Source of the DNA: Ancylonema sp. | Lineage: Eukaryota | DNA length: 62,088 nt | Direction of reading: 5' to 3' | Assembly (NCBI GenBank): GCA_050230475.1 | Contig: JBFLGF010000123.1 | Span: 1-62,088 of the forward strand | Part shown: positions 479-60,598 of the stretch, piece after piece | Layout: the number at the start of each line of letters is the position of its first letter | Position numbering within the stretch: position 1 is the stretch's first letter | The notes under the pieces: generated by a model | What the model was told of the DNA's origin: nothing | Seen by the model: the letters and a program-made list of their open reading frames with translations, nothing else | Databases searched by the model: none | Made by a program: the position numbers and the translations under genes

Positions 479-3400
479 CTCTCCAGTATCCACTTTCGTC
501 AGCTCTGTCCGTAAAGCGTCCCCGCCGAATTCCAGCCCCCCTCCCATCCCATCCAGGGCATCCACCCCAAAGTTGAAGTCCACGCCTGCCACCGCCACGC
601 TGCCCCCATCCAGGCGGAGGGAGGCAGTCACAGCTGGAACTGAACTCCCCCAAAAAGAAACCCCTTAGAAAAAAAATGAGGCCCATAGTAAGCCAAAAAC
701 ACCCAGAAACACACAAACACAATATCCCCAAACATAACAAAATAAATAAGCGGGGCCAGTAACCCCCCCCCCACCCCGCAGAACAAAAACTCCATGCAGT
801 ACTGGGGACTGCCGCCACCACCCCCTCCCACCTTGCGGCACGAGGATCTGAAACTGGTTCGTGACCGCTGTCGCATTCCCACTCGCCATCTGGTACTGAA
901 CCAGATAAACCCCGGACACATTCGCAGTGAAACTACACCCCACCTCCCCCCCGCCGCCCAGGACGCACTCCAGCCTGCTCCCCCCCCTCCCACCCCCCGC
1001 GCCCCCGCCCCCCGCGCCCCCCCCCATGGGCTCCCGCGCCGAGCTCGCCACCACTGCCACGTCAGCGTCGCTCTGCAGGGGCACCGCGATGCCCCTGCGG
1101 TCCCTCGCCTGGATGGAGAATTTTGTGGGTCCCGCCCCCAGGCCGCCCCCCATGAGCTGCCCCCCGATATCCTCCCCGAACTCGTTGATTGCCGCCACCA
1201 GGTTGCCCCGCGGCGGGCCCGCGTACGGCTGCACGACGACACCTGGCGCGCTCTCCGCCAGCGAGGCCGTGCCCAGCTGCACGTTGATGTGGAGGCGGTA
1301 GAGGGACGAGGGACCGGAAGCGGGTGCTGGGGTATAGTCAACCCGGAAATAGCATCCCGAGAGGGGGGTGAGGGTGTAGGTGGGCAGGGACGAGGGTGCC
1401 CCCGCCCCCGCCCCCCCCTGGTCCACCGAAAACAGCACCCCCAGCCGCGCCTGATACCCGTTCGCGGTCGACGTGTTCACCGGGTACCCGCCCCTGTCCC
1501 TCAGACAGATCCCGAACGCGGCCCCCTGCCCCGCCACCGCCCCCGCCCTGAACCCCGCCCCGAACACGGTGCTGTGTCTGCGCGACACGGGGCCGGGGAC
1601 CACCCGCGACTCGTACGGTTTCGACGTGTACGGATCGCCCACGGGACCCCCCCCAAAGGTCGCGTGGTACTGCAGGAGCCCAGGGGCGGGGGGGGTGAGG
1701 GCGAGGACGTAGGTACCCGGAACCGGCTCCGTGGAGTTCAGGTCCATGCTGGACCCGGTTAACCGCGTCTCAGTGGTGACACCCGTCCCCGGGTCTGTGG
1801 TCTCGATGGTCACCACCGACATTTTCGCCACCAGGTCGTTCTGCCCTGACACCGGATTGCCGTACCTGTCGCGGAGGGTGAGGTTTAGGGTGCAGGGGCT
1901 GTCGGTGAGGAGGGGGTAGGTGGGCCCCAGTCCGGATACCGTACTGTGGGCGCCAGCTGGCAATGCTGCCTGAACGACTAGCGACAGGTTTCCGTTCCTC
2001 ACCACCAAGCCCCCCAGAGTGACCACCACCCCGTATGTGCCTGCCACCTGGGCTGTTACTTTCGCCTGGTAGATCCCCCCCCCCGCTGACTGGACGGCCA
2101 GGGGGGCGACAGCTGGCGTACCCGCCCCTCCTGGGACACTTGTCACGCTCACGTTGAACGGCACGGGTCCCGATGAGACCAGATTCCCGTACGAATCCAG
2201 GGCCGCCATCTGGACCATCCACGTTGCGCCAGCTGTCAGCGTCGGACTAGCAGGCCCCATCGCCAGACTCTCTACCGGGCTCACTGCGCCAGGTGTCACC
2301 GTCACCTCATACGACGAAAGAACCGCCCCCTGCAACAAAATCTCGACTGTAGCGGGCCCCGCTACAGTCGCGTTGTAGCTCCCCACATACACCCCGTCCT
2401 TCCCGTACGACTCCAATACCCCCGTCGAGTAATAACCCCCCCCCCCCCGCACCAGGAACTGGAACACATCCCCCCCCCCCCCCCTCTGGAACCCGTTCGA
2501 GTCCGCTGACTGGATCCGTATGCCAGCTGGCACCCCCACGACGGCCCCCCCCAGCCCCGACCCCGACAGCACCACCCCCAGGGGCGACGCGGGCCCGGCC
2601 ACCGCCTGAACCCTAAACGGCGACCCCGCCGCCTGAACCCCAAAACTCTGAACCCCGACGTCGAAAAACCCCACCCCCTGGGGCGTGTAGGTGACTGCGT
2701 ACAAACCCCCCCCCACGTATTCGATCCCCGAGGGGACCGTCCCAGCGACACCTGTCGTGTTCGCACTGGGCAGCACCACCACATCCCACGCCTCCCCCCC
2801 CCCCTCCACCACACTCTTATTGCCGTCTCTAGACGTGATGTGGAAAGTGGTCGGCGTCAGGGCTGTCAGCACCCCCCCCCCCCCAACCCCCTCCCCCCCA
2901 ACCGCACTGTCTCTGGGACTCACTACGGGGGACGACGATAAGGAGGGGGGGGGGCGGGATGGGGGTCCGAGGGTGGGGAGGGTGGGGGAGAAGGGGGGCG
3001 CTGAGCTGGCACCAGCAGGGGCAGCAGTTACCGTGACCGCAACAGAGCCCCCTCCGCTGACCACCTGGGAATTCACCTGGAGGGTGACAGTGTACGTCCC
3101 TGGGGTGGGCGCACTAAACAGAGCCAGGTAGCTCCCGTTATAAAGGTTCAGGTAGGGTACCGGTATCGAAAGCCCCCCGGATCCGGCATAAGAGAAATTC
3201 AGGAGGAGAGGGGGTGAGATCGGGTCAAACGGCCCCCCATTCCCCTGGGCGTCCCTGGTGGTCACTTGGATAGGTAAGGTCGTGCCAGCTGGCACTGTGA
3301 GAGGGCCTGACGTGTCCACCTTCGACTGGGCGGCGGACACAGGCCCCCTGAACACAGGCACGGAGAACGGACTGCCTGCCACGTGTCCGGCCGGGTTCCC

Positions 3401-6400
3401 GTCGACTGCCAGCTGTACCGACACCTGAAAACTCCCTGAGGGCGGCGCCACCGGCGGCGCGACGTAGGTCACCAGAAACCCCCCACCCCCCCCCAACCCC
3501 GCCAGGCTGGGTGGCACAGCCCCCAGGGGGGAAAGGGTGACTATCAAGGTATCGTTTGACCCCCCTCCCCCCTGCAGACGTCCCTGGGATGTCACTGCCT
3601 GTACATAGAAAGAAGCCTGTTCCCCTGCCATTGATTTTATAAGCCCGGATCCGAAGGCGTAGGAGAGGGGGGGGGAGGTTGGGGCGGGGAGGACGGTGAC
3701 TGCTAGCGGGGGGCCTGGGATGTATTCCCCCCCCAGGTACGCCTGCACCAGGAGACTCCCAGGTGTTTCCAACAGAGCGCCAGTGCTGCCTCCCCCCGGG
3801 CCCTTCGTGCCTACCGGCGCCCCCCCCTCCGTGCTGCCCCCCGTGTACGAGAACTCCAGCCCCCTGCTGTCGACATTTGGCACGACGTTATTCAGGCGGT
3901 CGCGCGCCGTGAGCGCGACAGCTGGCGGCGTGCCCTGGAGCCCGGTGGGGGAGAGGAGGGAGACGGAGGAGGTGGAGGCGGTTGGGGGGCCGGGGAGGAT
4001 GAGGAGGGTGCGGTTGGGACCCAGGACCTGCTCTCCGTTCAATACGACCGAGAGAAGGAAGGTTCCCGCCACCGGGGACGAGATCTGGGCTGCCAGGTGG
4101 CATGCCCCCCTGAGGCTCTGACAGAAGCTGAGCTGGCAGTCCGGGGACGGGGTGCAGGACCCGACCACGGACGGGGCGCCAGCTGTCACCGTCCCGTTGG
4201 CTGCCGCAGTGAGTTGGGCCAGCGAGATCTCACAGCGTGGAGCAGGGGGGATCGGCACGGGGTTCAGGTACGAGTCAAAGAGGTACACCTGTACCTCCCC
4301 CTGCTCGCCAGCTGTCAGGTTCCCCATCCCCGACCCGTGCACAGCCGTCACTTCCGGATCGACCTTCCCCGGGTACACCTGGATCGCGTCCCCACCGCCC
4401 CCCCCCCCGATCGCCGCCCCACCCAGCGCCCCAGCCAGCGTGAACCTCCCCGCACGTGTGAGCACGAGGTCCCCCAAAACCCCCCCCTGCCTGAACCCCA
4501 ACACCCCCTGCACGGGCTCCAGGTTCCCCACAGTCCCCAGGCAGGTGGTATCTGGGGTGGCCAGCACAGAAAACCCCTCCCTGGGGACAGCTGGCACCTC
4601 GTACACCTGCGCGTTCCCAAACTCGTCCCGGGCCACGAACGGGACGGACACCGCGGCGCCAGCTGGCGTCGATTTCGGCACGGCGCCCAGTCGACAGGTG
4701 GCGGCCGAGGAGGGCGCGGGAGAGACGAGGACAAGGGGGGATGTACCGTCTTCCCTCAGGACCCCCTCCCCTGCCACACACGTGTCACAGACCAGACTGT
4801 AGTTTCCCGCCACGTCCACTTTAAAGGTCGCATTCCAGCCCGCCCCCCCCCCCGCCCCCCCCCCGTTCGTATACCCCCCAACCGCGAGCGGGAACGACTT
4901 CCCCCCCCCCACCAGACTCATCCCCAACCGCATCGTCTGCAGGGTGGCATCCGAAACCGCTTCCAACCCCCTAGCATCCACAGGGACAATCTGCACCCAG
5001 CTCCCCACGCCAGCTGTTGCGTCCTCGAGCCTCCTAGCGAGCAGCCCCGCCACGGGCCCTGACGCGGTCACTATCTTCAGGAACAGGGGCCCCGTTCCGA
5101 TCAGATACCCGTTCACCGTCACATACCCGACGTACGACTCGTTCACCGCCCCGCTGTACGTCACCAGGTACGTGCCGTCCCCGTTGTCGGACGTCCGTAC
5201 GGACACGTCCGTGGACAAGGGGGGGATGCCCAGGGGGACATTCAGCGGCCCCGGGGCATCGAGCACCTGGGGTACGATTCCCACCTGAACCAGATCCCCC
5301 CCCACCCGCTTCCTGTTCCCAAACACGTCTGCCCCCCTCACCACAAACGAGACCTCCGTGTTTTCCGCCCCCCCCAGCGCCCCAGCCCCCTCTGCCGTCG
5401 TTTTCGACGCGTCTGCGGGGCCCGCGCTAATCTCCCACAGAAAGGGGCTGGCCAGGAGGGGCACCCCCCCCAGGAACACCTCCACTAGGGCCCTGCCAGC
5501 TGTCTGCCCACTGAAGAACGACATGTAATACGACCCGTTCGCGCCCCCCCTCTGTACAGTCACACTCCCCAGAGGCACGCCCCCGCCCCCGCCCCCGCCC
5601 CCCCCCGCCCCCCCTACAAACAGGACAGCTGTCGCGCTCAGGTTCTTCCCCTGGGCCGCATTCCCCAGAGCGTCTCTGCACAGGACTGTGAATCCGGCAG
5701 TGGAGTTCACTGGGGCGGAGTTGGGGGGGGGCGGGGCGGGGGCGGTTGTAATGGGGTCTGCTGGGCCCGCTACCACAGTGACAGCTGGCAGTTGGGTGGC
5801 CGCGAAGGTGTAGAGCACCCCCCCCCGGAGGACGCGGATGTCGGCGGTCCAACCCCCGGGTTGGGGGGGGGAGAAGGAGAGGGTGTAGGTGCCGGTGGGG
5901 GAGGTGGTGAGGGTGGCCGGGCCCGGGTATTGCAGGGGGGGGGTACCCGGGGGACCTGTCAGGGTGGCGGTTATTAAATCTCGGGGATCGGATTGGATTG
6001 CCTTGCCGCCGCTGTCCTGGAAGACAAAGCTGAGGGTCGCCACCTGGCCTGCTGCAAAGGTGCCAGGTGGCATCGCCACGAGGCCGACGGGTGTGGGGAG
6101 GGTGACAAGGACGGGGTTTGGGGGGGAGAAGGTGAGGACGGTGGTCCCTGTGGTGTCTGCCACCTGGACGACAAGGGTGTACGCGCCAGGTGTCTGCAGG
6201 AGAAGGCAACAGGGGCAGGGTATTGATACAGATCCTAAAAAAACACCCCAAAAAAAATAAAAAACAGGTTGGGTTGGGAAAAGTTTTTTTCGACTCCTTC
6301 GACAGAAAAAAAAGAGGTTATGAAACAACAAAATTCTGTGTACGACATAATATGTATAACCGGCCATATGTATCCCGGGTATTGCAATACCCGGTACTCT

Positions 6401-6948
6401 GTGTGCATTCACCCGTATGCCATATCCGTCTGGGAGGGTGTACAACTGTATATCCATATCAATGTATGCATACGTGTATGGACACATGAGTGCATGCATA
6501 TACTTATGAACACATAAGAGCGTGCATACATACATGGACAAATCAGTGCATGCATGTATACGTATCGACATGTCAGTGCATGCAAACTATACATGAGCAT
6601 GCAAACGTACCCCATCTCAAGGAGATGATGACCCAGAACCCACCTGCAACGTATAGTTGGCCACCAGCTGCACCGAGGTGCTGCCACCTGTTGCCAACAC
6701 ACGCGCCTCCGTCACCACTTCCGTACCCGGGAGGGGCCCGGTGAGCGCCACCTGGGACCCTGAACCGACCTCGCTGGAGAGGTTGCCACGTGTCCCATAG
6801 GCGAGCTGCAGCTCCAGTGCCACGCTGACACCTGTCCCTGCCACCACCGCTGAGAGACCGCTTCCCGTGAGAGAGGCGGCTGCGGTTTGGAGGATCGAAG
6901 GGGTGCTGACAGCTGTCGTTGCCAGCTGTCGGCTCCTCGAAGAGCCAC
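479..6948 (-). CDS. Very large filamin/Ig-like repeat protein (GEX2/FUS1-like architecture); 5' and 3' ends unresolved
   Basis: Exons 6948-6644, 6193-832 (5.36 kb, open) and 639-479 have phase-compatible GT-AG sites (LQ|TPGAY; PQG|VPAVT). About 15 filamin-type motifs (RDALGN, GADVFGN, RDEFGN, RDAQGN, LDSYGN, RDRYGN; DNGDGTYLVTY; GSPF). Further 5' exons probably lie at 7270-9006, with a hydrophobic signal-like MGRKL...LYCLLISVLL at 9006. Confidence 0.85.
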
Positions 6949-9492
6949 CTGTGTTGCGTTCAAGGGTTGGAATATCAGAATAGAGGAATACGGGAGTTTG
7001 GAAATGCTCTATGAGAGCTCCACGTGTCATTACCCTGTTGGAATTTGTTCCCTCCTCCCTGTTACTTTCTCCTGTCTGGGTCCCATACCTCGCCCACGTA
7101 CGTCCCTTGACAGCAGAGAGGCCTGACCAAATCATCAATATTATGTTACTTTTTTTTTACTTTTTTTTTTTTTCATGACGGTGCATATTTATTACCCCGA
7201 TTCCGATGCTACAGACTCCCCCCTAGACTGGTTGCTATCAAGACCTAGAGCGCCAGGTGGCGTTGCTTACCTTCCAACCCTGTACGGGCTAAACCCACTC
7301 CAGCCTCCTCCCCTTCTTCCCCCTCAACACTGCACAAATTCCACCCCTCACAAGGTCAACGACTGGCCGAAGCTGCTAACCAGGGTAAGCTTCCCGAGTC
7401 AGCTTGCTCTGTAGCGACTCAGTCGAGGGGAGACAGAGTGTGACATCTGTCAAGAGTCTTTCTCTGATGGTCACACATCCTTTCTCCTCCACACAGATGG
7501 ACTCTGTACCTTTATGTTGGTGTTATTTTCATTTGTATTTTTAGTTTAATATATAATTAATTAATATATAATTAATTAATATAATATAATATAATATTTT
7601 TCATGCTACAAACACGTCAACACTCGGTAGTTTGACTCCAGAAACATACCCCCGATCCTCTATCTGTTATGTCAGAGCATACGCTGCAAGAGAGGTGGGT
7701 AGCAGTTTCATGAGGGTTTTTTTATTCCCCATTTACATAATTATTCATTATCATTATTATGAAAATAATAATCCGTTCATCCTTGATTTTTTCGGACCTT
7801 TGTTTTTTCCCGGAGACTGATTGAGGATCCAATAAACACACTCTCTGTTCATTCCCGGATAGGTCTTACCTTGGCGACGAATCTCTCTCAAACGCCACGT
7901 GGCTGATTGTCTGTGGCTGGCTCTCCTCATGTGCCCAAGGACTGCTTGCAGAGGCTGCAAAGGCGCTAAGGAGAAAGACTTGGTGCTCACATTCTGTACG
8001 ACTTACTCCACTTACTGACCACCATAATTACATGATAATATCTATCCTGATGTTGTCGGAGGATTGTGATTTCACACAGTCCCTCCCTCACTAGGTAGGC
8101 TAGTATGGCAGAGCTGTTACCAGTGGCAAATCTTTTTACCAGTAGGAGATCTCTCTACCAGTCCACAGGAGATATCATATGTGTGAGACTCAGTCGGTTC
8201 CCTATGATGACCACATAACCGATATTGTATGTTGATATGTTTCAGGTTCATGTACCTTGATCCACGTGCGAAAACACTTTTTTTTCATTTGAGAGCGAAA
8301 GATGGAGGTTATATGAATGCAATTTCTAGAATGGCACGAGAAAGTACGGGTTGTGGTTGTATGTCAAGCAGGCACTCGCAAAGTCGGCCTAATCTTGGCA
8401 CGGCACGTAGCCAAGTCGAGCACCCGACTCATCATTGGGGCTCGAGATGCAGTCCAGTAATCACCAGGTTTCTCCACAAATGTGATGAACGCGTCTCTCT
8501 GCTTCATGATTGATACCAAATACTGATTGAGTATGGTGGGATGAATAAAGAAGGGATACATTTACATCACATGTTTCTGCAATGACTCCTCCGTTCGTTT
8601 CACGTTTCGTTTCGCTTGACCTCATGTGTATAAGTAGGGGTGTTGCTACCGAAAACAAAAAAAATAAAATTTTCAGAACTTCAGTTTCTACACAGGTAAA
8701 GCTGGGACATTGATACAACCGTAACGTTCAGTCTATATTTTAATGTAAGCGGTAAGCAATGAAAATATTTGGCCTGGGGAATATAATGGCGCTAAATTCA
8801 GCGCCGGCGAGAATTTGTCGCTGACTCTGTTTCCTTCGATTCTTCAGCGTCACAACGGTGAAAAAATTACCACAATGATCTCTATACCTCATCCTTTCGA
8901 AAGGTACGCTTGGATTACCTCTTGAATAGACTATCTGGTTGAGCAGTACAGAAATGAGAAGGCAATATAGGATCTCCCCAGCAGGGCAACTCAGCTTCCT
9001 CCCCATCGGAAGCTCCCTCTTTGAACCACAGAATTGATACTGTTATCTAACCATCGAAGCGGTCATATTGGTTCGTGACCAGTCCCTGGCCGTCCGACTC
9101 CATTGTACAAGGCTGCCAGTCGTCGGACTAGGAAGGCTGCTGAAGAGCAGCGGAGGAGCAGCTCCGTTGGCGAGGGACAGAAAAACGAAAATTTGAAAAG
9201 TAAGGTATGTCGGTTCCGTACTTTTGAAAACGTGCCAAAACGGATTGTCATTATTGTTCCGTACAAATCGTGTCGCGTTCAAGGTTGATCTGAACCCCAT
9301 CAGATCCATCAGGACTTCTCTTCTGGGCGAAGGAGCGCTGGGGGGAGAACATACCACTCACTTACCTCACGGGAATATCGCAAAACATCGAGTAATCGAC
9401 ATATCGAACCTAAGTTTTGTAGAAGAGGCAAGCCTGAAAGACTGCTTCTGTCCCGGTTTTCGAGGGATTTGTTCTCGATCGGAAGGCATACG

Positions 9493-12400
9493 ATGTCGGA
9501 CGCTCACGCCTGTTGGCTCTGCTCTCCGCTTGGAACAACAACCTCGGCAGGAGACTCGCCCCTCTCACTCCACCTATCAGAAACAGAGCCCAGTAGATTT
9601 CTACAGCTGGTCTTGCATTATCTGAGACCTTTTGACGGCGTTCCTGTGACAATCGAACGGCTGTCCGGCCAGGTTAGCCTTCAGATCACCACCCGCATTG
9701 CGCTTTCGGTTCGGTATCGTCCGCAAGTCTGGCAGTCGACTTTGTTATCAGGACCGAATACTTTAAAAGCGATGAACTGGACATCAATTTTTGACTGCAT
9801 TGGCCCATTTGTCACAATTGCAGAAGTGATCAGTGTATCGGTAGCTTGTTTTAAAAGTAGTGGTTCTCGTAGTCATTCGAGTTTATACCATCAAAACCTA
9901 ATGCTCTCATAAAAATCAAGTTTCTTGACTGGTTACCCGCTTTCAAGCTTTCAAGATGATGGTGCGCCAATGAATGGAATTAAGCCTTCTAGTAGTCCAC
10001 CCGCAGGACCAACCTGTTCTAAACCGCTCCACTGAAGCAGTCACGGATCCCATCACCATTGCTCGATCCTTAGCATCTGCTGCGGGAGCTGCGGCCTCCG
10101 GAACACTGTTTGGGGCCGCTGGGGAGGCAGAAGCAGAGGTAGGGGGTTGGGTTGGGGTTTAGCGGTGGATAACTTCCTGGAAGTGCCAATGAAAAAATGA
10201 AGATGAGCGGAACCCGCAATGCTGACACTGGCCTCTCTCTTTATTGCCATTCACAATTTCTGCTAATTGTGGTGAGTTTTGGGTCGTGAAGTACGGACCC
10301 GTCTCCTTCGTTTGTCCCATCCAGGTGGACCGATTCCTGACCTCATCGCATGTGGAAACCCAGTCAGCAGTCCAGTCAGAAGGGCAGTCAGCAGTCCCCA
10401 ACCGCATTCAAACCCTCAATATCCACCTTGCTACACGATCCGTGCTGGTTGGCAGCCGTGCGGTTATCACGGTTGCTGACCTGGCAACCTTCAGTTTCCT
10501 GCATGGCCAAGTGGTGAGTTTTGGTGATGGTCTACCAGGGAGGGTTGGGGGATGGGAGGGAGAGATGGGTGGGTTGGGAAGGATGTTAAGTATGGAGGTG
10601 GGGCAGCACGGCCCATACCAAACGAGGGGGTCTGGTTTCATGATACTGATGGCCGGAAGATTGTATTTTTCAGGTGGACTCTTTGTAATTTGTTGCTGAT
10701 GTGGCATGCTGTGGTGGCTGCAGGTGAATATGACAGAGGAAGATCGGGCGACTGTACCAAACTTCATGAGGTGGTTTGACTTTGTGCAGGTAGTAGCCAG
10801 AACTCGCCTTTGAATATCTGGCTATACCTTGTACTATCAACTACTGTTAACCTATGTGGTTTCCAATATCAGGGTTTTGATACCAGCCACAATTTGGTTG
10901 GTACAGTAAATCCTGTCTGAAGGAATACTGTTGGGACCGGGAAATTATATTATATTCCTTTAGACTGGTTATTCACCTAGACAGGGACGGTCTTAACAAA
11001 TCCGGGTTTGGGACCGGAATTTGTTATTCCTTCAGAGATGTTATTCCTTTAGACAGTATTCCTTTAGATTGGTTATACTGTATCTGGAACAAATCGCTGA
11101 ACCGATCCGAGCTGCAGGATCAGGTTCAGGATCAGGTTTGAGTATTTTTTTCCAGTTTCAAACCGTTTGCTTCCTGACTGTGTGCTGGTTTTCTCTTTTC
11201 AGTGGAGGGGCGATACAGACTCCGACTACGACAAGTTGCCTGTACCAAAACCCAAGTTCAGCCCCCCTGTAAGCAATTTAGGGTTTGGCTCCCAGGTTCT
11301 TGGTTGGGTAGCGCATGGGTAGGGAGGGTAAGAAGGATTATAAGTAGGGGTCTCCAACAAATGTTCTTCGGAACTGTACCCTTCATCTGTCGTAAAGAAA
11401 CGGTTCCCATTTTGCTTCAGGACTGATAGATAGGACTCGAAGTGATTGGTTGTGATTTTGATACAAATTGATGAGTAACAGAAGCAGTATCCTACCGTTA
11501 CTACCGCAGGCCCCATTGCCTCCCACCCCCAAAGCTCCAGCACCTGCAGCATCTGAGAAGGCGGCATCTGCCACGTCAGCGCCAGCAAGTCAAAGCAGCA
11601 AAATCAACGAAAACCCCGAGGCAGACCGCCATAAACCCCAAAACCCTGAACCAAACTCCGCCCCACCCCCAGCTTCTGCGGGGGGGGCAGCAGAACCAGG
11701 AGACGAGAGGGCAGTGGGGAACGGGTCAGCCAGTGGCGTGTTGCCACCTGGCGCGGCAGGAGAGGGTGGGGGAGTAGGGGGTAAGGAGAAGAAGAAGGAG
11801 AAGGAGAAGATGGAGAAGGAGAAGAAGGAGAAGAAGGAGAAACCTCCTGCCCAAAAGAAGGAGGTGGATACGGGTATCAGTGTGGTGGACATACGGGTGG
11901 GGGAGGTGAAGAAGGTCTGGAAGCATCCATCTGCGGACACGTGAGTGGCTCCCTGGGGCGGCGGTCAGGAAGCGGGGGGGGGTCTGGAATTAGAGGGGTT
12001 TGTAGTTTTCGTAGTTTGTATTCCCCACACCCCCCCCCATAAATTGTGTGAGGGCTTGGAATGTAGAGTGGAAAGGAGGTCGAGGGGCCGGGAAGGGGGG
12101 GGCTGGGTTACGAATCTTATTGAATCCGGTGAGGATCTTTGGTTGGGAGCGTATGAGATGGGGCAGAAGTATGGGGGTGGGGTTGAGGGGGTGGTGGGTG
12201 AGTACGGAAGGAGCAGCATGACCCGAGCCTAAGTTTTGTTGAGTAATTTGTGAGGTGTCTCTGATTGGTCCGGAAACATCCCAGGGGACTATGTGTGGCA
12301 GCGGTTGGAAAGGGGTTGGGGATGTGGGGAGAGGCTCGGAATGGATTAGATCAGAGGGGCGTGGGGTTTATAGAGTGTCAACGTTGAAGTTGACTGTCGG

Positions 12401-17550: not shown

Positions 17551-17597
17551 AGTTTACTGTTGTGCAAATTAATCACTTTGCAATTCTAATAGAAAAC

Positions 17598-20350: not shown

Positions 20351-21021
20351 TCTAAATTTCACTTTCCCTCTACATACTATTTGGAGGGAAACTATATAAC
20401 AAACTAGAGAGGGAAACTATATAAACTATATAGTATATACCGTACTGGGCATCGTAAATGATTCCTATTTTTTCTCAAAACGAATTAATTTGTTAATGAT
20501 TTGGAAGAAAGATTCCGGGAATCCGGTTGTTATTATTGATGATTTTTGGCAATGATTTTTGGAAACCTACATACAAAAATCAAAACAAATCTTAAAAAAG
20601 AGAGAGACGCATTTTATTATGGCACGATGGGAACCGTATGCAAAAGGATCTCCATCACTGATGATCAACGAGACAGGAATTGCATGTGTGGAACGAATTA
20701 ATTATTGTGATCGCATAGGGGATCGTGATACCCGATGCGTTTTACATGTCGTTGTGTACTATTGACCGTCGGCCTATTGCTGAGTGACAACTCATCTACG
20801 TGTCAACGGCACATGCCGGACACTCTTGACATGACCAAAACAAACCAATCAAGACGCGTCAAGCAATAACGACTCTAAGTGTCGACAACAGATCAGGTGC
20901 CCGGACAGAATCGTGCCCGGCCCCGCAAATAAGCACATCTAGGAATATTGCTCCTAGGAATATTAACCGGTTACAATTGGACTAGCAAGCATAAGGTATG
21001 GCTATCCAAAGTGGCATCATT

Positions 21022-23933: not shown

Positions 23934-24248
23934 CTCTGCCAGCCTGACTTTTTTGTCGGGCCTCGATTCTGACATGAAATGGCAAGTCACAGAATTACGT
24001 GCAGACCTGTCGCAAACTCCTCCTTGATGCGGAGACTAGCAAATTCTCACAGTTCAAGATGTTGGTACGAAATGTCCAGACTTGAGCTCTTCAAGACACG
24101 TGGCGAGCTGATAGTGGCGGACTGTGAGCGTAATTCTGACGCTGAAACGGAGGCAGAATTTGTTGCTGACTTGCCGCTTTCTAGAAAGTCGGCATGCATG
24201 ACAGTTTCTGCCAAGATCCGGCAAAACGGCCGGGACGGGCAGAATGAC

Positions 24249-33806: not shown

Positions 33807-36800
33807 CTACACATTTTCCCTCCGCACTTCCTCCACGACCCTCGCTCCCACTCTATCCAGCGACCGCACACTTACAGTGGCTTGCAACTTCCCTTGTTGT
33901 AAGAACGCCTCTACCATGGCCTGCCCTATCACTTCCCCCTTCTCCACACTGTCTGTTATCGCTACCGACGTCGGCCCAGCTCCACTGATCGCGCACCCAT
34001 ACGCGCCCGTGACGCTCGCAGCAACTTTGACGGCGGAGCATCCGGGGATGAGTTGACTTCTTCGCGGCTCCACGATGAGATCGGAAGCTGCATCGAGCAA
34101 GACACGGCACGTGAATAACCGAACCTCTTCACATCTCTCCTTGTCAAGGTTTTGCATCCGGAGCTCTACATTCGTAACGGTACGGGGGACCATCATGATG
34201 CATTGCAATATTGCATATCCCAAACGAAAAACTCAGAACCCCCCCCATAAAACAGTAAAAAAGGGAGGGGGGGGCTTTGCCGAAAGATATATATATTGTT
34301 ATTGTTATTGTTATTGTTATATGCTATTTTTTTTGGACAGCGTTCTTTTAGAGAGGTTCCATTGTATAAAAAACCAGAGCGGGTCTTGCGGCGGGCCCAG
34401 ACAACTAGTATATATTGAACCAATGTAGCGTGGGATCCCCATCCTCCGATACCCACATCCACAACCCATTCCTGATCCTCAACTTTCTCCCACCGCCCTC
34501 GCAACGCACAAGAATTGCTTTCACTCACCCAACGCCGCCCCTAGCAAGCTCGCATTCCCCGTCAGTATTGCAGCAACCAGAGCCGCCGCTTGACTGCTGT
34601 TGGCCACGTGCGATTTCATACTCACCTACAACCCGCAAAGAGACAAAATGGTGGTCGATATTGAGCGTTGCATGCCTCCTTCGTACGGCGTCTTTAGAAC
34701 TCAAATCGTTTCCTGTACTGTCAAAATATTCTTATATCGAGGTTTGAGGGTTTGTACTCAACGGGTCGATTCCATACTATCGCACAAAGAAACTGGGGCC
34801 CCACTCTGTATGTACGATAGTGGTTTATATTCATCTCAGTTCTACTAGAAAGAATGAGTACACTACAAATAGTTTTCAGAGATGTAGGTTTTTTTTTTTG
34901 TTGTTCTTTTCACAAAAAGAACCCTCAAGGTCCCTCCCCACAAAAAGAATCCCCACACCCAACAACCCTAACAACCCTAACAATCTAACAATCTAACAAT
35001 CTAACAACCTAAAATCTAATTCTCCTATCCTAGTTCTGCGAACACCCCCCACCGACTACCACTTCCCCACACACCCAAATTTTTTATTTTGCAAAAAAAC
35101 GGAAAACCCCCCCAAGATCACTACCATCCTCAAGCACACAACCCTCCCCAACAACTTATCTCACACACACCCACTCAGGAGCGTTTGTGCATAAGCAAAT
35201 CCGTACATAACATATCTCTGATATTTCCAACATCAGCATCTCTGTGCGGGTAGCACAGCCCTCATCGCGAAAATGATAACATCATAACACAAAGCCAACA
35301 TAACATTATAACATCATATCATCATAACATCATATTACAAAGACATCATAACATCATAACATCATAAACTCAAAGACATCATAACATCATAACATCATTA
35401 CATCATAACGTCATAACATCATAACATCATAACATCATAACATCATACTACAAAGACAACATAACATCATAACACAAAGACAGCATAACATCATACCATG
35501 GTAACACCAAGACAACATAGCATAATAAGTCAAAGACCCACCTCAGTGGGTAGCGCGGCCCTCATGGCCTTGGTAGGCGCCTCAAACGCGGGCGTGGCGA
35601 CCACAAAGAAAAGGTCGCGGTCTTCCGGGTACGGTAACCGCAGAATCTCCAGGGGGTCGTAGCTGCGGATGAGCACAAACCCGCCCAGCAGAGCGGGTCC
35701 CACGTTATCCGCGTGATACCCGCTAACCGTGGCCTCGGATCGGAGACCCGCCACGACGAGGTCGTCTTTGGAGAGGGGGGAACCGAAGAGGGCATTCACC
35801 TGGAGACCAGGGATACCAGGGATGAGGGGGAAGGGGGGGGAGGTATAGTGAAACCTGTCTTCACTAATACTGTGCTGATGAATAACCTGTGTTGCTTATA
35901 GAATGACTTCCACCCGATTTCGGGTTATCATCAACCATTCTTGATTGATATTTTTTCCCGGTGATGACAGTATGAAATCAGTTAGGTTCGACTGTATATT
36001 GAATTAGAGGGATTTTGGGGGACACACACTGGTTGTTGTCTATTCTCCTTCCCACCAGTGTGATACAACTGTAGAACCGTCCACGGCACTGACCTGAATT
36101 CTAGACAGCCACACATGTCTGTCCTCTATATCCACCCCCCCCCCTCCCCCTCCCCCCCTCCCCCCATATCATGCCAGGTGGCGCCATCCTCACCGCACAG
36201 GCCGCGGCTGCCGCACTCGCCGCGCTGGACCCCAGCCCGCTGCCAAGCGGCAGACCCTTGTGCAACGTCAGTTCTACCCCCCACGATTTCACCCCCAGCA
36301 GCTCCAGGGTGGCCCCTGCAGCGATCCCCACGCAGTTGTCGCCAGCCTCAAGACTCAGTTTGCCGCCGTCGCCGGTGATGGATACGATGCGGACGCTACC
36401 CCCAGGGACGGAGTCGGACAGCTGGGCGGGGGGGGGGGGGGGGGGGCGCAGAGGGGAGGGAGGGAGGAAGAAGGGAGGGAGGGAGGGAGGAGGGGAGGGG
36501 AGGTGGGTGGGGAAGGGGGGGGGGGGGATGAGGGTGAATGTCGTATTGAGCGATATTGGGGAATGGGAGTGCAGGTCTGAACATAATCCGGACGAAACCA
36601 CAAGAGGTGTAGTTGAGTGCTCTAACCCTCAATACCACTTTCTGTGTGCGATGATGATTGTCATACTCGAAAATTGGAAACCCTAAAAACTCCAGGATTT
36701 TTAGTCGAAAGGACCTCCTACAGGGTTTTGAAAACCTTCGAGTTTCATCCCCTTGCTCGAGCAGTATCGCCCCCCCCAATGAGCCCAAATATTTGATCGA

Positions 36801-38297
36801 TGATAGCTTCAGGGCAGAATACCTGTGACGAAGGATGATACTTCTCCCTTGGTCCTGTTCAGACTACTACAGTGTAACCTGTCTAATGGAATAATGTCTA
36901 AAGGAATAACCTCTCTAAAGGAATAGCAAATTCCGGTCCCAAAACCGGAATTGTTAGGAACCGTCCCTGTCTAAGTGAATAACCTGTCTAAAGGAATATT
37001 ATTTCCCGGTCCCGACAGTATTCTTTTAGACAGTTTTTACTGTATGTGCAATATGTGAAAAACATCAAGAATAGGATGGTACTGTTTTTTCCTCCTGGTG
37101 CCACCTGGCGCCCTCTCCCTACCTCGCACCTCTGCAATGACGTGGTCCCCCAACCCCTCCACCGCACATCCCAGAAAGTCAAACCCCGGACCGAGGGTCG
37201 CCACTGTAGCGGGGGCGAATGCCTTGACACGTGTGAACAGCGGCTGGGGTTCAGAGGCAGTGAGGGGTTTGAGGGGGGGGAGAGCAGTCTCTGTCTGCAC
37301 GGCGCAAGTCACCTGCGGGGTTTGAGAAATAGGGTTCAGGTTCAGTACAGGTCAGGTTCACATTAGCTTCAGGTTAGGTTCAGGATAGGCCCATGGATTA
37401 CGTAATTAGGACGGTGGGCCAAGCTGCTGCAATGTTCATGTAAGTGGAGAGATTGGGAGGCTAGAGGGTGGGGGGTTGGGGGTTGGGGGTTGGAGATTGT
37501 GGTGTGCAGGAGAAGGAGGGTCCGGGGGGGGGGCAGTTGGCCGCGAGATGGGGGATGGGGTGTTGGAGTTTGGGCGGGTTTGGGGGCTGGGTGTTGGCGG
37601 GGTGGGAGGTAGGTGGGTTGTGGGGTTGGCGTCGAGGGGTTTGTGGTTTCGGTGCCGTTCATCACATAAAATTAGGGAGCTGGTGGTGCTTTCACGCTGT
37701 ACACCTGTAGGATGAAGTGTGTGTATAGAACAGCCCCATGGCTCGCACAACAGGGTGAGTAAGTCAGACTTTGTCGATGTTGCACTCTTGTATTTGCCAG
37801 TATTTCAGGGTTTTATAGAAGGACGTCGGAAGATAATGTAGAAGTCCAAGGAGACATTCGAGACTCCACATAGTGCCCTAAACTTAAAACCCTGAAACTT
37901 ATGTGTTCTTATCGTTGGCTACAGAGATCAGATTTCCGGAATACAAGCCGTGCTGAATCCGGCCACGTATCCTGATTCCTATTTTAAAGTTTTGTGGAGA
38001 TTATTCATCGCAGATATTAAGTACCAATGGTGCTTAATGGTTCATTTAAATCCATCAGGAGGGCTCTGGCCTATTTTTGGCAAGGGCGAAGAAAGTTCAT
38101 ACCCTGAATCTGGTCTTGGGTGATGCTCCTTGGACAGGTCGACAGCTTGTAATCGCAGACAGCTGCTGGGCGGCACCAAGAAAATGGTTTCTCCTGGAGG
38201 TGGACACGTGGCACCACCTCGGTGGGGCTGACAATCCGGAGGTGGAACATGTAGCGCCAAGAGCCACGGGGCAAGTTTCTAGGGCCGTAGCTGCCAT
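33807..38297 (-). CDS. HSK: Homoserine kinase, plastid-targeted (GHMP kinase)
   Basis: Exons 38297-38103, 37312-37130, 36421-36194, 35799-35542, 34625-34529, 34087-33807. Motifs APATVATLGPGFDFLG, KGLPLGSGLGSSAASA, HADNVGP, ISGAGPT. Confidence 0.96.
35277..35525. repeat. (CATAACAT)n-type intronic minisatellite
   Basis: Directly visible in an HSK intron. Confidence 0.85.
36868..37044. mobile_element. MITE family B, intronic in HSK
   Basis: TACAGT...ACTGTA; reverse-complement homolog of 10902-11082. Confidence 0.85.
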
Positions 38298-39346: not shown

Positions 39347-39419
39347 CTTTGTTCCGGATTCACGGCGCCGCATGCGACCTTCCGATTCGTCAGGCGCCGT
39401 TTTTAAACACACGTATGCC

Positions 39420-40155: not shown

Positions 40156-43100
40156 ATGGCCGCGGTACAGCTGGCAGTCCGCTCTGTGGCCATTGGTGCG
40201 GCCTGTTCCAGCTCCGGGACGTCAGCTGCGCCAAGGCGCTGCCACGTTTCTGCCTCCTTGAAAAGTCCCTTTTTGGGAGCCACTCCGCAGCTGCCAGCTG
40301 TCCAAAGCTGCCGACCTCTTCCGTCTGTGGGGTATCAGAATGCGTTCCGCGTACGGGCCTCCGCTGACAGCGGGGCAGGGATTGACTTGGAGGACATCTC
40401 GAAAAGTGAGGCTCTCTGGCTCTGTTGACTTCTTTGGTCAAGGTGATGATTGCACCACAAACGCCGTGAGCAGTACCTGATTTCTCGCACCTGATAGGAA
40501 ACAGCCAACGGGTAATGTACCAGCCACGTGTCGAAATCGTGACCCTCAGCTACTCTTGAATGGAGATGAGAAGATGACAGTCCGCCTCACGTAGGACATG
40601 AGGATGACGTCATATGGAATTGTCGATGGTGATGCATACATTATCTCTCTTCCAGACCCACGTGTGACATCACCACGTGACATCACCTGGTGGATGACTG
40701 AAAAAGGGGGGGGGGGGCTCAAACCAGAGCAGAGTAAAATGGAAGCCAATTTCGAACTTCGAATTTCAATGTGGTGCCTCGTCAAACTCGGTTATCAAAA
40801 CACATCTTAACCATGCAGTCAGTGTCCCGTCCCCCGCCCCCCAACCCTCGATGGTGCAGCCCTTGTCCCCGCTGCGACGTTCTACAAGATTGAGGCAATT
40901 ATTCGCCCCTGGCGTCTGCAGTTTGTCGCAAAGGTGAGGGATGGTCGTTGCATACAAGAAGCCGGGAAGTGGTCCCAGGAAGCTTCCGGGAAAGCACGGG
41001 GAGTGGTTTTGTGTGTACCCTGTCTCCTGAAACAAAACGAAAACAAACAGAAAGTTATTTGGGACACAAAACCCAAAGTGAAAACATTCAGGAGAATCGT
41101 AGTGTGAGATTATGTCGAAGATCCGAGATTGGAGATCTTACAACGAAAATTTCATACCAGGGTTTGGATCGTGGGTTCTGATTTTGTCTTTTGTCTTTTA
41201 AAGTGTGTCCAGTCTTGTTTTTGTCGTCGGACTCTTTTTGTTTTCTTGGATGTGGCGTCAGCACCGATCCTGAACCCTACAAAAAACACAAATATCACAT
41301 GAACATGATCCTGAACCCTTCAAAAAAAAAACATAAAGTCATATTAACACGATCCTACAGAAAGGGGAAAAAAAGGAAACACGCACGGGAAAAAAAAAAA
41401 AAAAAAAAACTTGAAGAGGCCTGATGTTAGGGCCTAATTAAAATACACAACTTAGGGGCCAACTTGAAGGGTTACAAGTGGGCGAAGATTTGAGGTATAT
41501 AAAGGAGACATGCATTTTTTCCCCCTCTCTTTTGTGTTTCCTTCCCCCCCCCGCGTTGTTTTTTTTTCCAGAACATTTATCTGTCATAGCCCAAAGTCCC
41601 TCCCAGTTCCCAATCCTTCTCAACTCGCACCACCTCGTCCCCAAAAACCGTTTCCCTTTTCCTCATTTCTCCACGATTTCTTTCCTCTTTCCTCGTTGGT
41701 CGAACAATTCCTAGATGCCCTCAACGTAGCTCATCCGCCCCCCTGTCTGCCCCCCCCTCCCAGGCTCTCCTCCAGGTGGGTATCCGCGGAGTGACCGTCT
41801 CTGACGTCAGAGGGTTTGGCGCTCAGGGAGGGTCGAGAGAGAGACAGGCTGGTGAGGGAGGGGGTGGGGGGGCAGGGGGGCGGGGGGGCGGGGGGGCTGG
41901 GGGGTTGGGAGGGGGTCAGGGCTGGGGAGCTGGCGATGACACTTAGTGTTGTCGGATGTCTGATGTCTGATGGGAACATTTTAGACTTAGAATCGCACTC
42001 GAAAAGGGGGAGACGGAGTCAGTTTGGGGTCTGGTTTCTGGTCGTCTTGTAAAAAAAGGGCATTAAAAGAAAAAATCGGGTGCAAAACGGGTATCCGATG
42101 TTGTCTGGAGGCTGCAGGGGGGAAGGAGTGGGAGAGGGGGGGGGGGAGAGAGAGACAGAGGAGGTTCTTCCGGGAGATGTGGCCCATGTTTCTGTGCCAG
42201 GTGGCGCTGTTCTCACTTGCCACGTGTCCTGTGGGTGTCGCAGGATCCGAGTTCACGGACGACAAATTTGTGGTCAAGTCCAAACTCGAAATCGTGGTCA
42301 CCTACGAACAGGTAAGGAGAATCAAGGACTCAAGGAGTACCCCCCAGGGGGCCCCCCCCTCCCACATTGGACTGCTGGTCACTCAAAATGCAAATGGGGG
42401 AGGAAATAAAATAGAAGAACTAAGATTTCTTATATTTGATGTGTAAAAAGACAGGGGTGGATGCGAACTACGATCTCAGAAACTCCTCCACTGGAACCGA
42501 TTGATTTTTTTATTCCTCCTGATAAATAAATTTAGTGTGTCTATCAGACCTCTTTGATTTGACGAAATCTAAGTTGACTGGATACTGAATCTGGTAATTG
42601 TATTCCTGTGTGTATGTATGTGTAGGTGTATGTATGTATATGTATATATGTATATGTATATATGTATATATGTATATGTATATATGTATATGTATATATG
42701 TATATGTGTATATGTACATATCTATGTGTGTGTGTCTGGTGGAAATGAACTTTGCTTCCAATAAACTAATGTATAAACTCGTTCCGTTCTCCATCTTTCC
42801 CTCCACCCATACGTATATCATGGAACTCAATATGGATAATATACTTTTTGTCCTACCCAAACCAGACATAAATCTGTGCCAGACATGAATGGTATCAATG
42901 GGGAAGTCCACAATGGAAGTTATGAAATCTAAAGTACACCGAAACCACTAGAGTATCCCGGATTCCCGTATAAGATCTTGTTCGTAAGAAACACTTGTCG
43001 GTTAAGATTGTACTTTTTTTCCCGTTGTTTTTCTCCGGGTTTTGATACTTCCACTACAGTCAACCCTAGGCATCCTAGGCTCCATAGGCGTCCTTCTGGT

Positions 43101-44765
43101 CGGCCAGTAGAGGGTGTGCCCTGAGAAAGGGGTGAAATCTGTAGGATTGCCTTTACAGGGGATGTGCCTATGCAGAGGGTGCATGTTGAGAGAAAAAACT
43201 ATAGAAACTGCAGAAGGTAGGAGAAACATTCGATGATTGAAACTACTTCCTCTGCCAGTTTCTGGTTCTTAAAGCGAGGCAATGAGCACGTGCGATTTTT
43301 TAAGGTATACTGTACTGTACTACCTACCTTGCTTCCCGACCCTTGTCCGGAGTCTATCGACGTCCCCGCCTCCCTCCGCCCCCCCGCAAACAGTCATTCC
43401 TACTCCCCCCAACCCTTCACCCCCCCACCCCCTGCCCCCCTTGCCCCCTGACCCAGACCCCAGACCCCAGACCCCAGGCCCTTACCGCAATTGATTCACT
43501 ATTCTATACTTGATACTGAGACCCGATTTCACATTCATATGTGATCGACAATAATGCCTTTTTATATGTGGAGCGGTACGTGTTGATAATTGCAGATGTA
43601 CAATGTCCTCTGTCTAAATCAGTCGTCACGGTAGGAGTCAAGACAGGTTTTTCTTTCATTTAATAATCACGAAATACATCGAAGATGGACATCCCTCCCA
43701 CCTGTCACCGAAATAAGCTTCCCCACTGACTGGGTGCGCCAGTGAGGTCCTGCCACCTGTCCTCAAATTGGTCCTGCCACCTGTCCCGTCCAGGTGGAGG
43801 CCGTGATCGAGACCATCATCGCAGAGGCGAGGACGGGAGAAATCGGAGACGGGAAGATTTTCGGTGCGTGCTCTCGAGTTTGTCTGTCCCACACACATAA
43901 TTCTACTCCCAGTACCGTTGTCTACCTAACAACTTACAACCACCCCACCTCACACACGTGTGAATCAGAAGAAAAGGAAGGACCTGTCTCTGGGCAGGGG
44001 TGACATCCCCAGGACCTCTACGTCGCACACTGGTTGCAGATCCAGTTTTTTTGACAGCGGATTCATTTCGGGGGGGGGTACCGATTAACTTGTCAAGGCA
44101 GAGGGGGTCTGATGGAGATTTTCCTTCTGCTTTCTCCCTCCTCCTCTTTTCCTTCTTCTCCTTCTTCTCCTTCTTCTCCTTCTTCTCCTTCTTTTCCTTC
44201 TTCTCCTTCTTCTCCTTCTTCTCCTGCCCCTCATTCTCCCTTCTCCCCACCTCCCGATTCTGGGTGTCTCCAAAATGAGACGTCTTTGATTTAAAGCCTC
44301 CCTCGCTCGAAGACTTGCTCAATATGTACAGCTGCCAACGCACACGTGTCACGCTTCACGGTCTCACGTGTCTCAACCACGTGCACGAGAAGTCGAGGGA
44401 ACTGACTGGCTGAATGTTGGGTGTGACTTCTGCCGGTTTTGCAGTATCCCCCGTGGCAGAAGTCATCCGTGTACGGACAGGTGAGAGCAGGAGGGGTGCG
44501 TCATCGTTTGAATCTGGTTTCCCATGTGCCTCCCCACTAGTTATTACGTATCTACGGACGACAGGCGCAACTCTTTTCGTACTGAAACTTTTTACTCAGA
44601 TTTTCTACCGCTGGGATGGGAGGTGATATGGAGAGAGTCTGGCGGGGTCCCGAAATGGTTCCCTGAAAAGAGAGACAAGCTTTTGAGGTTGCAGGGGAGC
44701 GCGGTGTAGAAGCGGAACGGATGGCTGGAGGGCGAATGGAGCTCCTGTCGAGCAAGACCGAATGA
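40156..44765 (+). CDS. GLB1: PII nitrogen-sensing protein, plastid
   Basis: Exons 40156-40405, 40860-40933, 41764-41851, 42244-42311, 43794-43863, 44445-44480, 44695-44765. Motifs FYKIEAIIRPWR, GIRGVTVSDVRGFGAQGG, GSEF, ARTGEIGDGKIF, VIRVRTGERG..AERMAGG. Confidence 0.97.
42610..42735. repeat. (TATG/TA)n microsatellite in PII intron
   Basis: Directly visible. Confidence 0.85.
44148..44225. repeat. (TTCTCCTTC)n tandem repeat in PII intron
   Basis: Directly visible. Confidence 0.85.
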
Positions 44766-51227: not shown

Positions 51228-53420
51228 GTCTGGCCTTCCATAAATCACGGCGCTGAACGTGCGTCGACTAATGACGTGTTTCTGATCCAGAGTGTCGATC
51301 GTTATTTCCAGTCGTTCCGTCCTGAATGAAGTGGTGATATGATTGACATCGACCGGTAACGTGATTTCACGTGTAACAACTTGCCTTGTCTTGTAATCAT
51401 GCGATTGGTTCTACGTCCGTAACAACCTAGACTTTTCGAGAATGCACGAAGTAGTTCCAAATTTGTTGGTTTGAAGATCATTTGAATTTCCATAATGTGA
51501 ACCAAAGTCAGGCATATTGATCGAACCCCGCCCAATGCACTAACTACAGGTGTCACCTGATCTACAAGCCCTGGAAAATATGACGAGACGTGCCGATACC
51601 CTCGAGCAATCTCTCTTGCACTTGAAAACATTTTTTATCGTTTGCATGTTGTATGTACTTCTCGTCGGTGCATTTAGTGGTGTCTCTGAAGCCCAACCCT
51701 CTGGAGGGCAGACATTTGCGACCTTCTACGGACAAATAAATGGCGATGGCAGCGACGGTAAATCCACATCAACCTTCAAAAGTGCAGTTAGTATGTACCT
51801 CTACGGATAAAGATATATCTTTTTTGGTAACAGCTTCATCTGTAATTCGATCGATAGCATCCAACCAAAAATAAAATCAAAAATAAAATCAGGAAACTAC
51901 CGCCTCTACCACCTCTATCATACGCCGGTATATTCTCCGTCAGGTTAAGAGTGCTACTAAAAGTCGAAGAACAAGTTGTGTTGTAATCGAAGGATATTTG
52001 ATGGCACCCGGTTGGAGGACCTAATTACTTCGGTAATTAAAAAAAAAAAAAAAACGGATTGTTTAAAATCGATAACTGCATGTTTCTCAGGCTGGAATTC
52101 ACGTTCCTCTGTGTGACAGGTGGTGCTTGTGGTTAGGGTCCACTCCTATCCACACCGTACGGAGCTCTGATCGCGGCTGGAAGTCCGCCAATTTACAACA
52201 ATGGTCTAGGCTGCGGCGCATGCTACTTGGTATAACCAGAAATCCTGCGGGTCAGGGATACATTCACACGTTAGTTTTTGTGTTCAGTGACCAGCTGACG
52301 GAGCGCACGTTACCTCAATTAAATATGCGACGATTTTTGCTTTTTGAATACAGACACAATGTCTCGACAAAAGTCTCTGCTCGACTACGCCAACACTGGT
52401 CGCCATTACAGATTTGTGTCCTGGTGATCAGTATTGCGGCAACAATCAAGTGGCGTTTGATTCGAGCGGCGCATCAAATGGATCGCCTGCCGTGACGGGA
52501 CAAGCTGACAATTTGCAGCAGTTAGGAGTGTTGAATATTTCGTACACGAGGTATTTTCCTGATATCTTTTTGGCTTTGATACATGCGGGTATCTTTTTTA
52601 CTTTCATTTGCATAGATGTCCGGCTGCAACTATACCACTTTCCGGCGCCTTTTATCACACCAGAGGAATCAGTACGTGGTCCACTTTCTCGCTCGCAAAA
52701 ATATATGCAGTTCAATATAATTCAGCATGCTTAGAATATCGAGCATTGAGGACCAAAACCAGCTTCACCGATTTCCGCAGGGCCCCATGCCGTTTTGGAG
52801 CAAGCGCCCTAGCGATACAAATCCGCAGAGGAAGTAATAATTATTATCTCTCCCTCGTGCCGATCGGAGGTGCCGGTCCTGGTGCCATTTCGGGACCGGC
52901 CATTAAATCGGTGAGCGCTCATTTCATCGTTCAGTCACCGCCATCATATTACTAAACGACGGTGAGTCATAATTCAATGCAACGGCTCTTTTTACCTGAC
53001 TTGTAATCCTCCATCATCATCGAAACTTGTCCTTCTTCGATGATGATTGAAACGTGTAATCTTATCCTGTTTCATGTACTGTGATTCTCACCTCGTCTGT
53101 ACGAATTGCAGGCGATTTCGAACACCCTCATCCAACTCTCCAAGGACTTCGGAGCGTCGTATGTGTTGAACGGTTATCAGCAAGGACCGTACACGGTCCA
53201 GCGTTGACAGGTATGCCAGTTCTACGCATGCGCGACATACCACGACTACGGTCAGGGACTGGAAATCGCTTACAACGTACAACGCACACCTTGAAGCGGC
53301 AAAATGACATCATCGAACTGTGTCTCCATGCAGGGGAGATTATTACATGCAGGAACCTTCTCCCCCAGGACTTTTCAGGCTCTGGGAAATATTAGGTCTC
53401 ATTCCAAGAGACCTAAGTTT

Positions 53421-60350: not shown

Positions 60351-60434
60351 GTACCAGTGGTCTAATGGTAGAATAGTACCCTGCCATCCGATGTCAGAGC
60401 GGTACAGATCCGGGTTCGATTCCCGGCTGGTACA
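60351..60434 (+). tRNA. trnG-GCC: tRNA-Gly(GCC) with 13-nt intron (60387-60399)
   Basis: Acceptor stem GTACCAG/CTGGTAC, anticodon arm GTACC-CT-GCC-A[intron]C-GGTAC, T arm CCGGG-TTCGATT-CCCGG, oligo-T terminator at 60438. Confidence 0.93.
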
Positions 60435-60598
60435 GCCTTTTTATTTTTGTAGACCTTTGTAAAAAACGAATCTTTCCGGTTGTCGGAGTTGGCAGAGCCA
60501 CCGACGTGCCAGCTGGCGCCTGCGTTGACCTCATCCTAAAATGGGGGTCGTCCACGGAGGGTATATATATTTACGAAATCAGCCCTCCCACTACAGGC

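Follow-up and report, generated by a model that had tools for sequence, protein, structure and literature searches.

A degenerate palindrome overprinted on exons and exon edges in a 62-kb window of a streptophyte alga, possibly read by a dimeric DNA-binding protein

Introduction

Palindromes overprinted on genes are already known in cyanobacteria, where HIP1 is reported to be enriched 15-300-fold, at 0.2-2.7 copies per kb (PMC5861425). What is new here is a HIP1-like overprint in a eukaryote, built on a different palindrome and exonic: the degenerate 10-bp motif G[AC]CA[CG][CG]TG[GT]C, which occurs at 0.64 copies per kb in a 62,088-nt contig of Ancylonema sp. (NCBI GenBank assembly GCA_050230475.1, contig JBFLGF010000123.1; this whole stretch is called the window). 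Like HIP1, the algal motif is a GC-rich palindrome spread over coding DNA in all frames, its one-off variants are skewed to the outer base, and it invites the same selection-versus-repair debate (PMC4390886); unlike HIP1 (GCGATCGC) and the alternate HIPs, its consensus, YGMCASSTGKCR, is a longer, degenerate 10-12-mer in a eukaryotic nuclear genome, and unlike HIP1, which lies both within and between genes, it is missing from intergenic stretches and associated with exon edges. The analogy to HIP1 drawn in a first-pass annotation of this DNA is thus sound in density and frame independence and breaks down in sequence and distribution. HIP1 is further characterised by conservation of its sites between related genomes, a periodicity of 10-90 kb and a cognate methyltransferase; we know of no such methyltransferase for the algal palindrome.

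Bacterial DNA uptake sequences, human exonic transcription-factor sites ("duons") and the PATCs (periodic A/T clusters) of C. elegans are also DNA-level signals that occupy genes or constrain codons; they are not palindromes of this kind, and to our knowledge none of them fills half of the encodable sites in a eukaryotic exon. The apicomplexan TGCATGCA, the nearest eukaryotic parallel we met, is likewise a hyper-abundant palindrome, bound by a known protein (ApiAP2), but is described as intergenic (PMC6631176). Among the papers listed by a literature search, which covered subscription journals thinly, none described the present motif in an alga.

Results and Discussion

The excess survives protein- and codon-preserving nulls

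All results below come from this one window, in which seven genes were modelled by hand from splice signals and translation, without RNA backing; 27 of the 40 motif copies lie in exons of one of them, a filamin gene. A regular-expression scan for exact matches finds these 40 copies where Markov models of order 2 and 5 predict 0.85 and 4.75. Each of the 39 coordinates in the first-pass annotation is an exact match; a fortieth copy, at 7894, had been overlooked. Twenty-two copies fall in one 5.36-kb filamin exon (the big exon), for which shuffling of synonymous codons yields 0.8 (maximum 4 in 3000), a roughly 27-fold excess. Context-preserving shuffles raise the expectation to 1.2-3.1 (maximum 7), the highest value arising within classes of (previous amino acid, amino acid), while an exact dicodon shuffle and a protein-fixed codon-pair Markov model give 3.7 and 3.4 (each maximum 10 of 1000), where 21 copies lying entirely within the exon are observed, still about 6-fold more; these last two nulls are conservative because they were trained on the motif itself.

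All three reading frames are used by the big-exon copies (18/3/1), and although GC content at third codon positions (GC3) is 0.79 in this exon, the motif uses rare codons ending in A or T: CCA (10/13 inside motifs vs 14/151 outside), ACA (7/11 vs 20/137) and GCT (13/19 vs 19/170) are all concentrated in it, as the first-pass annotation had noted in general terms.

One account, in which the motif simply falls out of the filamin protein sequence (xAG), of codon usage or of CpG deamination, is refuted. The protein is rich in G, P, A, T and V and offers many encodable sites (21 per 1000 residues), and the big exon is densest largely because its protein permits the motif so often; CCG is also depleted and CAG raised. 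Nevertheless, every protein-preserving or codon-pair-preserving null is exceeded, ten copies are non-coding, and the alternatives that deamination would leave behind are absent (GMCA-SS-CAKC 0, GMTG-SS-CAKC 0; CG-containing intermediates 0-2), which excludes simple CpG deamination as a form of the mutation bias that had been suggested.

A two-fold symmetric signal on DNA

The consensus widens by one pyrimidine or purine on each side to the 12-mer palindrome given above: over the whole window 64 of 80 half-sites are flanked by a pyrimidine, and in the big exon 38 of 44, against 58% expected (P=4e-5). All positions are sharply specified. Of the 16 CANNTG words, those with C/G centres alone are enriched; when the spacer is varied from 0 to 15 bp, the 2-bp centre alone is enriched (49 sites vs 3-9 for the others); and among 384 palindrome patterns of the same shape this one has 38 genic copies, the best non-overlapping pattern having 4. 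GCCA is the major half-site (50/80 overall, and 15/20 in non-coding DNA). The ten non-coding copies have CC or GG (6), CG (3) or GC (1) centres, the excess of GC centres in exons being due to alanine codons, and orientation relative to transcription is balanced (centre CC 10, GG 6; ends 13 vs 9). This non-coding mix of centres, together with the balanced orientation on the sense strand, argues that the signal acts on DNA.

By established base-readout chemistry, degeneracy of the A/C and G/T (amino/keto) and C/G kinds suits protein contact rather than transition-type mutation. Applying that chemistry here, we infer that two-fold geometry combined with such degeneracy is what a dimeric protein would read.

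Copies are confined to exons and exon edges

Coding exons hold 30 copies in 10.4 kb, the 50-nt intron flanks 7 in 2.5 kb, intron cores 1 in 10.3 kb, and the 500 bp upstream of start codons 2 in 3.5 kb (3,500 bp), whereas all other intergenic DNA holds none in 35.5 kb (35,466 bp). Seven of the eight intronic copies therefore lie within 50 nt of a splice site, spread over five intron ends (P ~3e-4 by length); two of them, at 43752 and 43776, form a 24-bp tandem duplicate and are not independent. GC content is 0.54 in flanks vs 0.44 in cores, and base composition predicts just 0.05 copies in the flanks. Within single-copy DNA, as defined by bins from the sequencing contigs of one sample over 1-14,000 and 33,500-45,000 (25.5 of 62 kb covered), flanks have 5 copies in 1,303 bp, cores 1 in 5,196 and intergenic DNA 0 in 3,832 (P=1.7e-4); since single-copy DNA shows the same contrast, the pattern is not merely the outcome of recent transposon turnover. 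The first-pass annotation had spoken of a DNA-level, strand-symmetric overlay on genes, nearly absent from transposon-rich tracts, and this stands: the enrichment, the balanced orientation and the empty intergenic DNA all bear it out, and a 4.2-kb copia element has no copy. It had also named outcomes that would tell against the idea; instead, the excess survives codon-pair nulls, introns depart from background, and several genes are involved. The copies it assigned to other genes or their 5′ regions are exact as well, but their placement is refined, those at 11743, 38203 and 40293 being coding and that at 40523 lying deep in an intron. The motif is thus real, strong and DNA-level, and it extends beyond one gene.

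Could transposons have seeded these sites, as relics of miniature inverted-repeat transposable elements (MITEs) bearing a G-box? Amplification of G-boxes by MITEs has been published (PMC5950925), and G-box arrays do occur in inverted element arms in metagenomes (see below); here, however, the repeats of the window, the copia element among them, lack the motif, placement is in-frame and synonymous, the centre varies freely, and the flanks of copies hardly exceed controls in similarity (9.9 vs 9.4 of 30). Nor do the copies sit in a repeat with shared flanks and terminal inverted repeats, as a MITE-amplified motif would. Such an origin is very improbable and, for these sites, largely refuted.

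A scan of metagenome contigs for a three-copy pattern returned at least 122 stretches, mostly one CG-only repeat, tandem repeats and bacterial chance matches; the same scan of viral contigs gave 12 loci, all tandem repeats, and a later scan 1. Among the matches listed, 103 of 121 metagenome loci are below 40% GC, 508 of 526 sites are CG-centred, at spacings of 18-19 or 23-24 bp, and no locus resembles the genome of the window, which is not proof of absence because the matches listed are a lower bound. Two of the loci were examined and contain a 1.2-kb element whose long inverted arms hold arrays of the G-box decamer (L018 9022-10268; L039 9035-10297); this element is very frequent among the AT-rich metagenome contigs. 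These arrays match the published amplification by MITEs (PMC5950925) and are a phenomenon distinct from the algal overprint.

The gathering of copies at exon edges also suits a signal in RNA, in which near-self-complementary copies would pair with one another or be bound by a splicing factor, thereby delimiting exons or preventing cryptic splicing within the giant exon. Besides the seven intronic copies near splice sites, one perfect copy (6185) and two one-off copies (6944 and 36417) overlap 3′ splice sites, the first G of the copy at 6185 (minus strand) being the G of the AG at the 3′ splice site of the big exon, and in several introns a G-rich 5′ end faces a C-rich 3′ end with which it could pair as well. 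On the other side, there is no preference for the sense strand; copies are found next to donors as well as acceptors, in either orientation, and two genes have one upstream; and strict palindromy with amino/keto degeneracy would leave many mismatched pairings. We regard an RNA-level signal as improbable.

Two further features distinguish the genes of the window. The observed/expected ratio of CpG is 0.42-0.88 in genes (lowest, 0.42, in intron flanks) vs 0.97 in intergenic and transposon DNA, with no clear difference near and far from motifs (0.78 vs 0.70). This depletion is consistent with gene-body CG methylation, which has been shown in Klebsormidium (PMC5890265). Runs of seven or more G or C (filamin big exon; introns of the filamin, Arc1p-like, homoserine kinase and PII genes) fall in genes in 69 of 72 cases, and GGG makes up 191 of 289 glycine codons; within the big exon, motifs lie farther from such runs than random positions (median 103 vs 54 nt; P=0.016, one among several tests).

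Sites are used in an all-or-none manner

Filamin uses 26 of its 46 encodable sites, and the other six genes together use 3 of 8 (0.37 expected, P=0.0016). Occupancy in the big exon is bimodal: 21 encodable sites are perfect, followed by 3/4/5/5 with one to four mismatches (null 0.8/3.4/8.9/15.8/8.8), so that 21 perfect sites stand apart from 17 at roughly background mismatch counts; in the upstream filamin exon the two encodable sites that are not perfect are one-off matches. If the shift in odds, 21/17 vs 0.8/37, is read as a mutation-selection-drift balance (our arithmetic), it corresponds to S ~4, or to S ~6 if only the main frame is counted, with a neutral chance of about 0.003 for each site. 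The per-site bias is thus roughly S=4-6, and selection and fixation bias yield the identical number. The protein itself, as judged from its sequence, seems to have been bent towards the motif: [TP]A[GV] occurs 19 times in filamin vs 9.2+-2.8 in shuffled versions, with no clear excess in any of the five distant homologues, which were the only matches (24-26% identity) in a search that found no close one.

Spacing in the big exon looks random, with no period of 100-260 bp (P=0.67 for the 22 exact sites, 0.80 with one-offs; coefficient of variation 0.92; just 22-34 sites), and the nucleosome-scale regularity raised in the first-pass annotation finds no support there. Close pairs at 23-24 bp (4 of 12) are merely suggestive, one of them being the tandem duplicate.

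The homoserine kinase and PII genes lie head-to-head, and their first coding exons are paralogous (alignment score 208 vs a null maximum of 126); an inverted duplication supplied two unrelated plastid proteins with the same predicted transit-peptide leader. Neither of the two perfect sites is common to both exons, the counterpart being a one-off match in one case, and so sites can turn over.

These properties bring forward the most serious contender, fixation drive without any function of the sites, in which an enzyme (a methyltransferase, a mismatch-repair or a recombination factor) that recognises the palindrome within gene-body chromatin biases repair or gene conversion towards the allele bearing it, a kind of drive that has been modelled for HIP1 (PMC4390886), and copies accumulate at every position where the encoded protein can bear them. 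Mathematically, a bias of 4-6 cannot be told from selection of that size; sites are not locally saturated; they turn over between paralogous exons; the depleted CpG and the G/C runs of these genes point to mutation or conversion particular to genes; and one-off variants in the big exon are skewed to the outermost base (5 vs 1.9 expected), as in HIP1 (PMC4390886). Drive does not so readily explain why sites gather at most 50 nt from splice sites when the single-copy cores of introns in those transcription units have hardly any, nor why one-off sites are not depleted. We also know of no eukaryotic methyltransferase with a 10-12-bp target, which counts against it. We keep drive as a contender mainly because occupancy lacks saturation, and consider it rather unlikely.

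A candidate reader and what it might do

Selection is preferred over drive mainly because copies concentrate at exon edges. The reading we favour, at a probability of about one half, is that the motif represents binding sites, kept by weak selection, for a dimeric DNA-binding protein that is abundant and probably belongs to the E-box (bHLH) type, and that these sites would mark exon-rich gene-body chromatin. The putative protein would read YGMCASSTGKCR in exons and in the first 50 nt of introns; each site would add a small advantage (S about 4-6); and the bound protein might help to define gene-body chromatin (CG-methylated, unlike transposon chromatin) or the layout of nucleosomes at exon edges.

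Several observations weigh against this reading: i) 27 of the 40 copies are in exons of a single gene, in 62 kb examined; ii) the coding exons of the glutathione S-transferase (GST), response-regulator and phosphatase genes use none of their three encodable sites; iii) use of a site is independent of distance to the next (P=0.89), without saturation, which fits drive equally well; iv) at ~4 per kb of coding DNA, the sites are denser than is usual for those of a transcription factor; v) the total of encodable sites is only marginally raised over an amino-acid shuffle (38 vs 29.6+-4.9, P=0.07); and vi) the paralogous leader exons share no perfect site.

As to the identity of a reader, the invariant CA..TG core with a free C/G centre appears to fit recognition by bHLH proteins better than by bZIP or TALE proteins. 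The motif has the CANNTG core, palindromic half-sites and fixed 2-bp centre of a bHLH E-box, and the bHLH protein ASCL1 can bind CASSTG (PMC8977041); unlike an E-box, it has strongly specified GM/KC and Y/R flanks and a very high density in coding DNA. Plant G-boxes and abscisic acid response elements (ABREs), which are bZIP/PIF sites such as bgmCACGTGk of ABI5, have the same GM..KC flanks (PMC5950925), but they are CG-centred and lie in promoters or transposon ends, whereas the algal motif lacks the CG centre in 33 of 40 copies, is upstream of genes in 2 of 40, and is in no transposon. The link to G-box/ABRE decamers made in the first-pass annotation accordingly fails, only 7 of 40 copies being CG-centred. 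As a rule, bZIP proteins need ACGT. The palindrome TGACAGCTGTCA of the TALE protein TGIF1 fits the algal consensus exactly (PMC6158717); a TALE homeodomain dimer (TGIF1, or TGAC pairs of KNOX/BELL) is nonetheless a poorer fit as reader, TGACA being present in just 7 of 80 half-sites (PMC6158717, PMC3904721). Some copies resemble the core of animal CTCF sites, a candidate dismissed on the grounds that the CTCF motif is asymmetric and plants are not known to have CTCF.

In its widest form, which we put forward tentatively and with more doubt than belief, the idea would be of a genome-wide, sequence-encoded exon mark, in which one dimeric protein has about half of the encodable positions filled, codons and amino acids are reshaped, and gene chromatin is told from transposons: a eukaryotic counterpart of HIP1, possibly kin to the G-box by descent. 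The motif is likely a mark on genes that is read by a protein; signals of this sort have so far been known mostly from bacteria. Filling over half of the encodable positions means a DNA-level force that overrides codon bias, and perhaps steers amino-acid choice, in a eukaryotic nuclear genome. Under both leading explanations a protein awaits discovery, which either labels exons through their sequence or skews repair in favour of the site it recognises, and the selection-versus-drive question of HIP1 would become testable in a eukaryote. The motif also bears on how genes and transposons are told apart in algae close to land plants, and on codon models and transgene design for this lineage.

Genes of the window and their host

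Motif copies and other features are collected in Table 1. Pfam supports the filamin (PF00630), GST, GHMP kinase, PII and purple acid phosphatase models, and the tRNA-binding domain weakly; the response regulator is so named provisionally, from our reading of its sequence. A homoserine kinase exon matches plants and green algae, and in a quick tree of 47 sequences the protein clusters, with support of 96-97, with the two sequences P0004 (80% identity) and P0029. This group falls within the streptophytes but separately from Chara, Spirogloea, Closterium and land plants. The host is accordingly a streptophyte alga; from sequence alone our guess was the Coleochaetophyceae, in a tree that contained no sequence named as Coleochaete, Klebsormidium or Mesostigma.

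Table 1. Positions of motif copies and of other features in the window
Feature	Position	Strand	Remarks
Filamin/Ig-repeat gene, big exon (5.36 kb)	832..6193	-	22 copies, 1238 to 6185; PF00630
Upstream filamin exon	6644..6948	-	4 copies (6785, 6827, 6908, 6921)
Filamin intron copy	7252..7261		10-19 nt into intron from 5′ splice site
5′ filamin exon copy	7894..7903		Frame uncertain; sole perfect G-box decamer
tRNA-binding-domain (Arc1p-like) gene, linker exon copy	11743..11752		LPPG
Partial long terminal repeat (LTR)	21017-21300		Related to copia-like element, 26 kb away
GST gene	22924-23975	-	
Copy upstream of GST	24095..24104		~120 nt upstream of start codon
Homoserine kinase intron copy	36173..36182		12-21 nt from 5′ splice site
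Homoserine kinase intron copy	37100..37109		14-23 nt from 5′ splice site
Homoserine kinase, first coding exon	38100-38297	-	Paralogous to first PII exon
Homoserine kinase, predicted transit-peptide exon copy	38203..38212		CHVS
PII, first coding exon	40156-40405	+	Paralogous to first homoserine kinase exon
PII, predicted transit-peptide exon copy	40293..40302		LPAV
PII intron 1 copy	40523..40532		118 nt from splice site; sole copy in any intron interior
PII intron, two copies	42196..42228		39-48 and 16-25 nt upstream of 3′ splice site
PII intron, two copies	43752..43785		33-42 and 9-18 nt upstream of 3′ splice site
Copia-like element	~47000-51230		Two LTRs
tRNA gene	60351-60434	+	
Copy between tRNA and purple acid phosphatase genes	60508..60517		~380 nt upstream of phosphatase

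Differences between single-copy contigs and the window are sparse and none of those listed falls inside a motif, too few to test constraint; those listed for contigs of runs X1 and X2 (1-14000 and 33500-45000) are nearly all transversions towards A/T, possibly of technical origin. The GST gene, without G/C runs and without a perfect motif in its coding sequence, encodes what we take to be a mu-class-like enzyme, unusual in the plant lineage. Only a tRNA was found by Rfam; it has an insertion in the anticodon loop, and although ARAGORN calls it Arg(CCG), its alignment in Rfam agrees with Gly(GCC) and an intron of ~13 nt.

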